64,000 nucleotides of DNA from assembly GCA_963731735.1 (NCBI GenBank), contig CAVSWO010000002.1, positions 192,875 through 256,874 of the forward strand, given 5' to 3'. The notes under the pieces were generated by a model. It saw nothing but the letters and a program-made list of their open reading frames with translations. It made no database searches and was not told where the DNA came from. Numbering within the stretch: position 1 is the first letter of the stretch; every line of letters begins with the position of its first letter. The translations under genes and the position numbers were made by a program. This DNA is from Candidatus Kerfeldbacteria bacterium. GTDB taxonomy: Bacteria > Patescibacteriota > Patescibacteriia > SBBC01 > CAIJZX01. Positions 26,617 to 27,602 of this stretch are shown here, one piece after another.

Positions 26617-27270
26617 CTAGGCGTTGTCTGGCTGATCTGGTTGAACGTCAGATGGCTTGGATGGTTTCGGTTCTGAGCGTTCCGCGTTCTGTCCCGTCCG
26701 ATTTCGACTCTCGCTGGAACGCAAAAATCGCGGGCGTGGAATTGAGGGCAATGATTGGCGAATCGAAGAACGCATCGGTAGTAAAAATTTCTTTTTGTCA
26801 CTCGACAAGTCCACAAAATCATCAGCTACTTCGCGGAGTTTCATGGAGGTTGATTCCTGAAAAGCCATGACTTCTACCCGGCAACCCCGAGCCTCCTGCA
26901 AATAGCGAACAAGCGGAATGTAGTCACCGTCGCCGGCCACTAAGACGATGGTATCGAGGCGATCCGACAGTCGCATCGCGTCCACCGTGATGCCAACGTC
27001 CCAATCACCTTTCTTGGCGCCGCCCGGAAAAACTTGCAGGTCTTTCATTTTTACCTCGAAGCCTTGCTTATCCAGGGCTTCAAAAAATTTCTGTTCTTCC
27101 GGCGTGTCGGCCCGAATGACATAGGCTAAAGCCCGAACCAATTGGCGACCAGCGGTAGCTTCCTCCAAAATTTTACCAAAATTCACGCGCGTACCGTGAA
27201 TGTTCTTGGCCGAGTAATACATGTTCGCCACATCGACGAACACTCCTATCCGCTGGTCGGGTGATTTCAT
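26617..27270 (-). CDS. NYN-domain (LabA-like / PIN-like) predicted ribonuclease with a low-complexity C-terminal tail
   Basis: NYN motifs GVFVDVANMYY ... VLVAGDGDYIPLV. It is located between rpsO and pnp on the same strand. Its start overlaps the rpsO stop (27267-27270). Confidence 0.65.
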   Translation of the reverse strand: MKSPDQRIGVFVDVANMYYSAKNIHGTRVNFGKILEEATAGRQLVRALAYVIRADTPEEQKFFEALDKQGFEVKMKDLQVFPGGAKKGDWDVGITVDAMRLSDRLDTIVLVAGDGDYIPLVRYLQEARGCRVEVMAFQESTSMKLREVADDFVDLSSDKKKFLLPMRSSIRQSLPSIPRPRFLRSSESRNRTGQNAERSEPKPSKPSDVQPDQPDNA

Positions 27271-27602
27271 TCCTTAGTGTCCTCCTTGGTATCTTTGGCT
27301 TCTGGTTCGTCCTTGCCTTCCGGTTCCTCAACCGCGATCTTGAGCTTTAACTTCTTGACCAATTCGGCAAAAGCGGCTTGGTTTTCACGTTGCAAAAACC
27401 GGAGCAGACGATGGCGCTGACCCACTTTTTTGAGCAATCCTCGGCGCGAAGAGAAATCTTTCTTATGCGTTTTGAGGTGATCCGTGAGTTGTTCGATTTC
27501 GGCCGTCAGAATCGCAATTTGGACCTCCGATGATCCGGTGTCCGATTCATGGACCTTGTACTTCTTGATAATTTTATCCTTGGCGTCCTTAGCCAGTGGC
27601 AT
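27267..27602 (-). CDS. rpsO: 30S ribosomal protein S15 with a Lys/Glu-rich C-terminal extension
   Basis: Canonical S15 core (ESDTGSSEVQIAILTAEIEQLTDHLKTHKKDFSSRRGLLKKVGQRHRLLRFL) followed by KLKLKIAVEEPEGKDEPEAKDTKEDTKE. Confidence 0.9.
   Translation of the reverse strand: MPLAKDAKDKIIKKYKVHESDTGSSEVQIAILTAEIEQLTDHLKTHKKDFSSRRGLLKKVGQRHRLLRFLQRENQAAFAELVKKLKLKIAVEEPEGKDEPEAKDTKEDTKE

Follow-up and report, generated by a model that had tools for sequence, protein, structure and literature searches.

In the 64,000-nucleotide stretch of a Candidatus Kerfeldbacteria genome analyzed here (hereafter, the window), the genes for ribosomal protein S15 (rpsO) and polynucleotide phosphorylase (PNPase; pnp) are separated by a gene encoding a NYN-domain protein. 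Kept at approximately 64% identity across classes within the rpsO-pnp operon, which ranks among the best-conserved operons of RNA metabolism, this gene stands out as a strong candidate for a housekeeping ribonuclease not described before. Its domain, fold and catalytic residues, the strong purifying selection acting on it and the conservation of its operon could be established. The explanation that we tentatively prefer is that it encodes a metal-dependent endonuclease of single-stranded RNA (ssRNA), which would act in general RNA turnover or processing and be co-expressed with S15 and PNPase.

The operon context of the gene appears to be undescribed; our literature search found no relevant paper linking the NYN/COG1432 family with Patescibacteria (CPR) or with rpsO or pnp, and no RNase inventory of Patescibacteria. 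These bacteria account for a sizeable part of bacterial diversity and have minimal genomes, and their biochemistry is almost unstudied. No molecular function has yet been assigned in bacteria to the NYN.COG1432 group, to which LabA and VPA0982 belong, and the conserved context provides a testable handle on it, namely PNPase- or 30S-related substrates. Since the family has already been tabulated as Patescibacteria-enriched and its member in a Saccharibacterium is non-essential, our finding refines existing knowledge and is no surprise in kind.

Organization of the locus and the pnp leader

The original prediction placed a NYN gene between rpsO and pnp on one strand. Profile matches confirmed the identity of each gene, and all three are located on the minus strand. 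The features of the locus are as follows:

27708..27736, minus strand: promoter-like site TTGACA-17-TAGAGT, with TG (consensus scan only, 10/12 matches)
27603..27707, minus strand: rpsO 5′ leader (defined by position)
27602..27267, minus strand: rpsO, ribosomal protein S15 (111 aa; PF00312, E 1.4e-31; TIGR00952, E 1.1e-34)
27267..27270, minus strand: stop codon of rpsO and start codon of NYN, overlapping as ATGA (sequence read directly)
27270..26617, minus strand: NYN-domain gene (217 aa, 654 nt; PF01936, E 4.4e-39)
26806..27252, minus strand: NYN catalytic domain, residues 7-155 (PF01936)
27234-27232, 27000-26998, 26931-26929 and 26925-26923, minus strand: codons of the catalytic residues D13, D91, D114 and D116, respectively (invariance and VPA0982 alignment)
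26620..26778, minus strand: Arg/Pro/Ser-rich C-terminal tail, residues ~165-217 (pLDDT 50-68)
26427..26616, minus strand: NYN-pnp spacer, the pnp 5′ leader (190 nt, by position)
26580..26589, minus strand: upstream copy of a 10-mer (GAUGGCAGUC as RNA; exact repeat)
26531..26540, minus strand: downstream 10-mer copy, forming the 5′ arm of the conserved hairpin
26459..26541, minus strand: conserved hairpin of the pnp leader (lower stem of 12 bp and upper stem of 7-8 bp, joined through a conserved internal loop; variable apex)
26440..26455, minus strand: small GC hairpin just 5′ of the pnp Shine-Dalgarno sequence AAAGGA (window-specific, missing in aligned relatives)
26426..24165, minus strand: pnp, polynucleotide phosphorylase (753 aa; PNPase equivalog NF008805, E 2e-277)

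The S15 protein has an acidic/Lys-rich C-terminal extension of ~22 residues, and profile searches identified two RNase_PH domains, a PNPase domain, a KH domain and an S1 domain in PNPase. The NYN start overlaps the rpsO stop as predicted: the NYN ATG (27270-27268) shares bases with the rpsO TGA (27269-27267). The predicted spacer length between NYN and pnp is likewise exact. The N-terminus MKSPDQRIGVFVDV agrees with the family consensus, and AAGGAGG is located 10 nt 5′ of the NYN start. Translational coupling of rpsO and NYN is predicted from the ATGA junction. The promoter-like site 5′ of rpsO overlaps the 3′ end of an upstream VTT/DedA gene, and a consensus scan of the minus strand revealed neither a sigma-70-like promoter nor a terminator-like site in the NYN-pnp spacer. 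We infer that rpsO, NYN and pnp would be co-transcribed from one promoter. The interval stated in the original prediction, 26617-27602, spans the NYN gene and rpsO, and the leader and pnp lie outside it.

The classical organization of rpsO and pnp in E. coli, where RNase III processes the pnp leader, is similar in that rpsO precedes pnp in the same orientation and the pnp 5′ leader contains a long structured hairpin. The two loci differ in that a third gene, coupled to rpsO, intervenes in the window, where rpsO and pnp are consecutive on one strand but not directly adjacent, and in that the sequence motif of the window's hairpin is CPR-specific. This motif was not found in the non-CPR loci examined. 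RNAalifold analysis of nine leader sequences revealed 20 pairs, nine of which showed compensatory changes. At E < 1e-3, the resulting hairpin model retrieved 15 further matches, almost all of which end at a pnp start codon, and 92% of the pairs were canonical across 24 sequences. The hairpin is absent from Rfam 15; searching the entire window with the gathering thresholds returned nothing relevant, and a search of 26300-27800 at E <= 1 returned only a chance match to astro_FSE (E 0.14). A covarying hairpin of this kind is the duplex type typical of an RNase III substrate, for which it is a candidate. As a CPR pnp-leader RNA motif outside Rfam, it offers a route to asking whether PNPase autoregulation is ancient.

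The description of the leader as hairpin-rich held only in part. One long hairpin (26541..26459) is phylogenetically conserved, but the whole leader folds no better than shuffled sequences (z = -1.74; 10 of 200 shuffles were as good). The rpsO leader gave z = +0.47, with no excess of folding and no Rfam match, and in statistical terms the pnp leader as a whole does not qualify as "hairpin-rich". The 10-mer duplication was confirmed; it reads GACTGCCATC on the plus strand at 26531-26540 and 26580-26589, and we estimate that ~0.03 exact pairs of this kind would arise by chance in 250 nt. We considered the repeat as an alternative-pairing or attenuator element and rejected this, as relatives have a gene or other sequence in place of the repeat and the near-identical strain L001 differs by a SNP at 26587, within the upstream copy. 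Because of this SNP and the lack of conservation in relatives, the duplication is probably incidental.

Fold and active site of the NYN protein

The NYN ORF matched Pfam PF01936 with 134.7 bits (gathering threshold 24.2) over residues 7-155 and model positions 1-144/145. PF01936 was the only match reported at E <= 0.01; the VapC PIN family (PF01850) was not matched, nor was NYN_YacP (PF05991), the separate Pfam family of Rae1/YacP, a bacterial NYN-type endonuclease tied to the translation apparatus. The Pfam search revealed no RNA-binding accessory domain. With 30.9 bits against a cutoff of 178.45, the protein is a relative and not a member of the NCBIfam family TIGR00288 (NYN hypothetical equivalog). 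A homology search yielded 5500 homologues, and D13, D89, D91, D114 and D116 were invariant in 100/100 aligned homologues.

The AF2 model of the NYN protein showed an overall pLDDT of 86.9, with values above 95 in the core. Foldseek searches with this model revealed the highest similarity to VPA0982 from V. parahaemolyticus (PDB 2QIP; TM 0.93, E 3e-18), followed by the NYN domain of MARF1 (TM 0.72-0.75, E 1e-6). The modeled structure corresponds to a PIN-like α/β fold with a parallel central sheet, probably without a helical insert after S2, and with 2QIP as a structural neighbor. VPA0982 was also the only sequence match in the PDB (E 3e-37, 36% identity), and the two proteins share the KGDWDVG and GDGD motifs and the Asp triad. 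They differ in that VPA0982, which has no known function, is from a non-CPR source and the window protein has an additional disordered tail of ~50 residues. The tail motif LLPxR...PRPRF is kept in the nearest clade only, and many orthologues stop at ~165 aa.

Residues D13, D91 and D114 of the window protein align with D14, D92 and D115 of VPA0982, so that the acidic residues expected to bind the catalytic metal in a NYN/PIN nuclease are present at the positions of a known triad. In turn, these VPA0982 residues correspond to MARF1 D358/D426/D452 and to D13/D118/D143 of the CRISPR-associated NYN protein from B. fragilis (Chi & White 2024, PMC11346440). The latter is a stand-alone protein, structurally nearest to 2QIP and MARF1, and shares the three catalytic aspartates with the window protein through the VPA0982 mapping. 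It is a Mn2+-dependent, sequence-nonspecific ssRNA nuclease that is inactive as the D13A variant (PMC11346440). Its gene is part of a type III CRISPR locus, and a role in crRNA trimming has been proposed for the protein, whereas the window gene is located in the housekeeping rpsO-pnp operon. The MARF1 NYN domain (PDB 5YAA, 6FDL) has the same fold as the window protein and is a demonstrated endoribonuclease (PMC6217404, PMC6294520). In contrast to the window protein, MARF1 is eukaryotic and multidomain (RRM, LOTUS), shows 14-16% identity and owes its specificity to accessory domains that the window protein is missing. Taken as a LabA/VPA0982-like (COG1432) protein, the NYN ORF is predicted to be an ssRNA endoribonuclease, and its homology to MARF1 and the B. 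fragilis enzyme suggests that this activity would be metal-dependent.

A further family member is SEML1_0084 from the cultivated Southlakia epibionticum (Saccharibacteria), a patescibacterial NYN protein of ~203 aa with a PF01936 match and a 2QIP-like structure. It is tabulated as a core, Patescibacteria-enriched family and is the sole member with genetic data, being non-essential by Tn-seq (Wang et al. 2023, PMC10633639). Unlike the window gene, its gene is located apart from both rpsO (SEML1_0025) and pnp (SEML1_0093). SEML1_0084 also scores lower against Pfam, and its orthology to the window protein is putative.

Gene order and conservation among relatives

Close homologues of the NYN protein were found in at least 595 species-level genomes, apparently all Patescibacteria. 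Among the best 80 loci, S15 was located directly upstream of NYN in 72 and PNPase downstream in 70, and 66 contained rpsO, NYN and pnp in this order on one strand; gene calls on a 979-kb contig provided independent confirmation of the order. The arrangement is thus not unique to one genome, and with both the acidic residues invariant and the gene order widely conserved, the core of the original prediction stands. Direct adjacency of rpsO and pnp, the usual arrangement, was observed in 45 metagenomic loci selected by S15, mostly non-CPR.

The linkage of NYN to rpsO is closer than that to pnp. The S15-NYN gap had a median of 17 nt (73 loci), with a 4-nt overlap in four other loci, and the NYN-pnp gap had a median of 148 nt. 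In L009, L010, L019, L033 and L036, no leader separates NYN from pnp, and the two genes either overlap or meet at junctions of 1-7 nt. The rpsO-NYN pair is kept without a neighboring pnp in L032, L040, L059, L060 and L062, and the next gene after such pairs is L19, RluD-L19 or rnc. More generally, the substitute neighbors of NYN are RNA or translation genes (rnc, L19, RluD, TsaD and S16-KH-TrmD). The closest relatives contain an ORF of 251 aa between NYN and pnp, of which no remnant was found in the window.

Within the same loci, the median identity was 64% for NYN, 65% for S15 and 52% for PNPase; in loci chosen by S15 instead, it was 62% for NYN compared with 55% for PNPase. Between the window and strain L001, the NYN gene showed three differences, all synonymous. 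These sequence comparisons indicate strong purifying selection on the NYN gene. In Saccharibacteria-like genomes, NYN is a stand-alone gene; a homology search with the NYN protein of L080, a MAG labeled Saccharibacteria, gave no match bearing a Saccharibacteria name.

Possible roles of the NYN protein

In the tentatively preferred explanation, the rpsO-pnp operon of many Patescibacteria would have acquired the NYN gene as a permanent third member. In the window, this gene would be transcribed from the rpsO promoter region, translationally coupled through ATGA and followed by a pnp leader carrying its own conserved hairpin. The protein would make internal cuts in ssRNA, and the 3′-OH products would be degraded by the co-expressed 3′-5′ exonuclease PNPase; it would work beside RNase III, J and Y and not in their place. 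Consistent with this are the PF01936 match, the 2QIP-like model, the invariant aspartates, the 66/80 loci with all three genes, the short S15-NYN gap, the NYN-pnp junctions without a leader, the high NYN identity and the RNA or translation genes among the substitute neighbors; we infer a functional partnership of NYN and PNPase. That SEML1_0084, a family member, is non-essential in a cell with RNase J, Y and III agrees with a decay nuclease of auxiliary or redundant function. The stand-alone NYN genes of Saccharibacteria-like genomes, the rpsO-NYN pairs without an adjacent pnp and the regulatory phenotypes of other NYN.COG1432 members such as LabA speak against a turnover role, and NYN may adjoin pnp simply because it was inserted between an rpsO and a pnp that were already neighbors. 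Moreover, NYN is more conserved than PNPase, so that PNPase would be unexpected as its main constraint; the ribosome, for example, would be a partner of higher conservation.

The main alternative, which is possible although we hold it with some doubt, is a ribosome-linked nuclease whose target or partner would be the small subunit or the translating ribosome, in which case the coupling to S15 would be the relevant link. Such a protein could function in 16S end maturation or quality control, for which the PIN nuclease Nob1 of archaea and eukaryotes is an analogue, in the removal of rRNA insertions, which are common in CPR, or in ribosome-dependent mRNA cleavage, for which Rae1/YacP is an analogue. 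The tightest linkage of NYN is to rpsO (ATGA or 0-10 nt junctions in addition to the short median gap), it survives without an adjacent pnp, and NYN identity is at the ribosomal-protein level, above that of PNPase. Earlier neighborhood analyses also tied bacterial NYN domains to tRNA/rRNA processing (PMC5499597). Nevertheless, the absence of an RNA-binding accessory domain and of a NYN_YacP match is unfavorable to this alternative, and rpsO adjacency could be a mere insertion site. In S. epibionticum, the NYN family member tolerates transposons (NE at all three time points), whereas most ribosomal proteins and RNase III are essential (PMC10633639); on the assumption of orthology to the window protein, this argues against an indispensable step of rRNA maturation. 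A non-degradative regulatory or RNA-binding role, with nuclease activity absent or incidental, appears unlikely. It would follow the example of LabA, a genetically defined circadian output regulator of cyanobacteria for which no nuclease function has been shown; NYN.COG1432 members such as LabA have regulatory phenotypes without a known mechanism (PMC5499597). The window protein belongs to the same NYN.COG1432 group and has a basic, disordered C-terminal tail, but its catalytic aspartates are all invariant among the 100 homologues and both biochemically tested NYN-fold proteins are active RNases.

The original prediction further suggested that NYN may be a lineage-specific RNA-processing factor in pnp autoregulation, of particular interest if RNase III were missing. 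In this model, the protein would be dedicated to the pnp leader and would replace or complement RNase III in PNPase autoregulation. This found no support and is, in our view, improbable. The gene is located immediately upstream of a structured, conserved pnp leader, and endonucleolytic processing of the equivalent E. coli leader allows PNPase autoregulation (PMC5029454). However, the hairpin is a long duplex, yet characterized NYN enzymes cut ssRNA non-specifically (PMC11346440), and the hairpin was also detected (E 2e-13) in L091, where rpsO adjoins pnp without NYN. RNase III also occurs alongside NYN: L060 has the order rpsO-NYN-rnc, rnc is located 4.6 kb upstream in L067, and in S. epibionticum a NYN protein coexists with RNase III, J, Y and PNPase (PMC10633639). 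No rnc was found in the 64-kb window using phmmer with an approximate E. coli RNase III query and a signature regex, a search outside which the other ~760 kb of the genome lies. The lineages whose NYN-pnp junctions leave no room for a leader, the NYN orthologues located away from pnp and the tighter linkage to rpsO also disagree with a leader-specific role, and one operon-specific target of variable sequence would hardly account for ~64% identity between classes. Farthest from the data is a selfish or defense element, that is, a PIN-like toxin or a mobile insertion between rpsO and pnp, a toxin-antitoxin or mobile-element reading that we rejected in view of distribution and context. PIN-like nucleases are common as toxins, and a XerC-like recombinase gene is located 1.2 kb upstream, but this gene is syntenic in relatives, neither a VapC-type PIN match nor an antitoxin-sized partner was found, the flanking genes being rpsO and pnp, no PADLOC-type context was seen (without a PADLOC run), and NYN occupies the same position in hundreds of species at 60-86% identity.

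It is also conceivable, although rather doubtful, that NYN is a Patescibacteria-specific core part of translation or RNA surveillance, physically bound to the ribosome/S15 region or to PNPase. Such a component could take the form of a minimal "degradosome" of NYN and PNPase or of a ribosome-dependent nuclease resembling Rae1 or Nob1, which perhaps also excises CPR rRNA insertions. If true, this would explain conservation at the level of ribosomal proteins in the rpsO-pnp operon across hundreds of species.

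The rpsO-NYN-pnp operon and its conservation

The window comes from a Patescibacterium (CPR), and every relevant gene was located on its minus strand, as follows:

27602..27267, minus strand: rpsO, 111 aa (PF00312, E 1.4e-31; TIGR00952, E 1e-34)
27270..26617, minus strand: NYN ORF, 217 aa (PF01936, E 4.4e-39)
26426..24165, minus strand: pnp, 753 aa (PNPase equivalog, E 2e-277)

These coordinates and matches confirmed the original prediction of an NYN gene between rpsO and pnp on one strand, with its start overlapping the rpsO stop and a 190-nt leader with a duplicated 10-mer before pnp; the prediction left the strand unstated, and its coordinates (26617-27602) took in rpsO and NYN only. 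In particular, the rpsO TGA and the NYN ATG shared bases as ATGA, AAGGAGG was found 10 nt upstream of the NYN start, and the 190-nt spacer between NYN and pnp contained exact copies of the 10-mer at 26531-26540 and 26580-26589. We also observed that S15 extended ~22 aa past the 89-aa bacterial core (27267-27335, minus strand); this C-terminal extension was acidic/lysine-rich (AVEEPEGKDEPEAKDTKEDTKE), and the ribosome-binding site of NYN lay inside the DNA coding for it.

With each GTDB species represented by one genome, a pattern scan revealed close NYN relatives at no fewer than 595 loci, and the neighbourhoods of the best 80 of these were searched by tblastn with the S15 and PNPase of the window. 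Among these best 80, S15 immediately preceded NYN, on the same strand, in 72 (its side was cut by a contig end in 3 more), PNPase was downstream in 70, and both were found together in 66. The median S15-NYN gap was 17 nt, with several 4-nt overlaps, and the median NYN-pnp gap was 148 nt. The named lineages among the best 80 were all Patescibacterial (Kerfeld-, Uhr-, Buchanan-, Veblen-, Falkow-, Komeili- and Moranbacteria, 'Parcubacteria' and 'Patescibacteria group'); titles reading 'uncultured Gammaproteobacteria' were also numerous, but they come from automated TPA bins and look like placeholders. Independently of tblastn, the genes called on a 979-kb contig were ordered S15-NYN-(249-aa ORF)-PNPase-cmk-lspA-comM, the same synteny as in the window. 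Since the 66 loci and this contig share the order, the arrangement is not unique to one genome.

As a control without NYN ascertainment, 80 metagenomic loci were picked by S15 similarity, of which 56 had enough downstream sequence. In 45 of the 56, pnp came straight after rpsO; with mostly lower S15 identity and, in many cases, high GC, these loci evidently come from outside the CPR. The order rpsO-NYN-pnp was found in 8, the loci with S15 closest to that of the window, and NYN stood right behind S15 on 3 further short contigs. The NYN insertion is therefore a lineage-specific variant of the usual rpsO-pnp operon. Our literature search returned no paper on a conserved rpsO-NYN-pnp operon, its level of conservation or a CPR pnp-leader hairpin.

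In the 59 loci with all three genes, which were selected by NYN similarity and are biased accordingly, the median identity to the window proteins was 64.9% for S15, 64.0% for NYN and 52.0% for PNPase, and NYN exceeded PNPase in 56. The S15-picked set (n=6) gave 61.6% for NYN versus 55.5% for PNPase. The near-identical strain locus L001 differed at 7 of 5125 positions, including 3 in NYN, all synonymous.

The closest relatives carried an extra ORF of 249-251 aa between NYN and pnp (L002 5645-6400, its equivalents in L003-L005, and L162 6633-7382), which had no Pfam match. It was fast-evolving, with 32-40% identity among relatives versus 71-82% for NYN, and was absent from the window, where the interval consisted of the 190-nt spacer only.

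The NYN protein and its active site

The NYN ORF had PF01936 as its sole Pfam match (134.7 bits over residues 7-155; cutoff 24.2), with no match to NYN_YacP or VapC-PIN in the same search and a score below threshold for TIGR00288. Its nearest named homologues were from Candidatus Kerfeldbacteria MAGs (80-85% identity). An AlphaFold2 model built with 100 homologues as input showed a mean pLDDT of 86.9 (core >95), with disorder confined to the C-terminal ~50 residues. Foldseek against the PDB revealed VPA0982 (2QIP) as the best match (TM 0.93, 36% identity), followed by the MARF1 NYN domains (TM 0.72-0.75), and 2QIP was the single significant match in a sequence search of the PDB (E 3e-37).

Residues D13, D89, D91, D114 and D116 were invariant across the 100 homologues, and a HMMER alignment to 2QIP placed D13/D91/D114 on D14/D92/D115 of VPA0982. 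The latter have been equated with D358/D426/D452 of MARF1 and D13/D118/D143 of the B. fragilis NYN protein, a Mn2+-dependent, sequence-nonspecific ssRNA nuclease that is inactivated by D13A (Chi & White, PMC11346440). The acidic NYN/PIN residues are thus present and aligned with known catalytic aspartates.

The protein family and fold are already known. The window protein belongs to the NYN.COG1432 (LabA-like) group, listed as 'function unknown' by Matelska et al. 2017 (PMC5499597), who also recorded links to tRNA/rRNA processing from earlier neighbourhood analyses. Published tables imply that the family is enriched in Patescibacteria (Meheust-derived families as used in PMC10633639).

At E <= 1e-30, a profile search of a library clustered at 50% identity yielded 585 representatives; relaxing the threshold to E <= 1e-3 raised this to 7382. 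One very close CPR-type homologue (P0130, 413 aa, E 4e-73), with a ~200-aa extension behind the NYN domain, was deposited as 'Nanoarchaeota archaeon' (DPANN); gene sharing between CPR and DPANN may lie behind this label, or else mis-binning of the contig. Many more distant relatives (480-550 aa; P0220, P0237, P0254 and similar) had a C-terminal NYN domain behind an uncharacterised region of ~320-350 aa, and one such cluster had a Latescibacterota-labelled member.

A conserved hairpin in the pnp leader

When the region upstream of pnp was aligned for nine relatives, a conserved hairpin emerged: a lower stem of 12 bp, then a conserved internal loop, then an upper stem of 7-8 bp closed by a variable apex. 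Its approximate consensus is UGGyCgnCAGAC-loop-UAGAC...GUCUA-loop-AGyCUGnnGGyCA. RNAalifold predicted 20 pairs from the nine sequences, with compensatory changes in nine. A covariance model was built from the same sequences. The hairpin has these positions:

Window 26541..26459, minus strand: conserved pnp-leader hairpin
Relatives: L002 6427-6500; L015 3465-3558; L067 5518-5600; L091 1499-1584; others

In other loci, the model gave 15 further matches (E < 1e-3), and the pnp start codon marked the end of nearly all of them. In the 24 sequences, whose alignment was fitted to the model and so leans towards structure, 92% of pair cells were canonical and many positions showed three to five pair types. 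The leader had been described as hairpin-rich; one covarying hairpin was upheld, but, taken as a whole, the leader did not exceed shuffled sequence in stability (z -1.74). Of the two 10-mers, the downstream one corresponds to the 5' arm of the hairpin; the upstream one was not conserved and contained a SNP in L001.

The hairpin, which occurs in many Patescibacteria, matched no Rfam family; it may represent a cis-regulatory element of the pnp leader that has not been described before. In E. coli, the classical site of RNase III/PNPase autoregulation is a long duplex that is interrupted by an internal loop and lies immediately before pnp. With more than 20 bp and an internal loop, the CPR hairpin resembles this site (cf. 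PMC5029454) and, by analogy, would presumably serve the same autoregulation.

Possible roles of the NYN protein

The proposal that NYN is a dedicated processing factor for the pnp leader, of interest if RNase III were absent, was not borne out and is highly improbable. No RNase III gene was found within the window (64 kb of the 822,872-bp source contig). Among the relatives examined, L060 (4601-6360) has rnc, with Ribonuclease_3 and dsrm domains by Pfam, in the position of pnp right behind NYN, and L067 has it 4.6 kb upstream. In the cultivated Saccharibacterium S. epibionticum, Tn-seq gave GD/ES/ES for both RNase III and RNase J, NE/NE/GD for RNase Y and NE/GD/ES for PNPase, and the PF01936, 2QIP-like protein SEML1_0084, of a core and Patescibacteria-enriched family, was NE/NE/NE (PMC10633639). 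NYN is therefore present alongside the usual RNases of the Gram-positive type instead of replacing them. Additionally, the hairpin scored E 2e-13 in L091, where 133 nt and no NYN gene separate rpsO from pnp. Five loci (L009, L010, L019, L033, L036) lack a leader, the NYN stop and pnp start being 1-7 nt apart or overlapping. The rpsO-NYN pair was kept in L032, L040, L059, L060 and L062 though pnp was not adjacent, one clade has a stand-alone NYN between greA/M23 and a sortase gene, and characterised NYN enzymes act on single-stranded RNA, not duplex. Together, these observations make a dedicated leader role unlikely.

Our preferred reading, which is tentative, is that NYN has a housekeeping role in RNA turnover or processing as an endonuclease of single-stranded RNA. 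Expressed together with S15 and PNPase, it would cut RNA internally and hand the resulting 3'-OH ends to PNPase. Such an auxiliary decay nuclease fits the operon membership, the frequent two-sided translational coupling, the intact active site and the non-essential Saccharibacterial family member. The main rival, a ribosome-linked role, appears rather unlikely. In its favour, NYN is linked more tightly to rpsO than to pnp, its conservation is of ribosomal-protein grade and above that of PNPase, and its alternative neighbours (L19, RluD, TsaD, rnc or S16-KH-TrmD) are translation-related. The Tn-seq result for SEML1_0084 argues against an indispensable rRNA-maturation step, provided that this protein is the orthologue of the window NYN. 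Less likely than either, a LabA-like non-catalytic regulator is improbable, and a toxin or mobile element is barely credible.

The subclade off rpsO/pnp (L163 5112-7247, L164, L080 2556-6710) had the conserved order greA-M23 peptidase-NYN-sortase and NYN proteins of 222-235 aa with ~61% identity to that of the window. Elsewhere in the window, two very large adjacent ORFs (1369 and 1836 aa; 1620-11199, minus strand), both with hydrophobic N-terminal segments, were found upstream of the rRNA adenine dimethylase (KsgA) gene. A 249-aa ORF (29517-30266, plus strand) with a sub-threshold match to PF18780, 'homing endonuclease associated repeat' (E 5e-4), was flanked by a XerC-like recombinase gene and tRNA-Arg(TCT).
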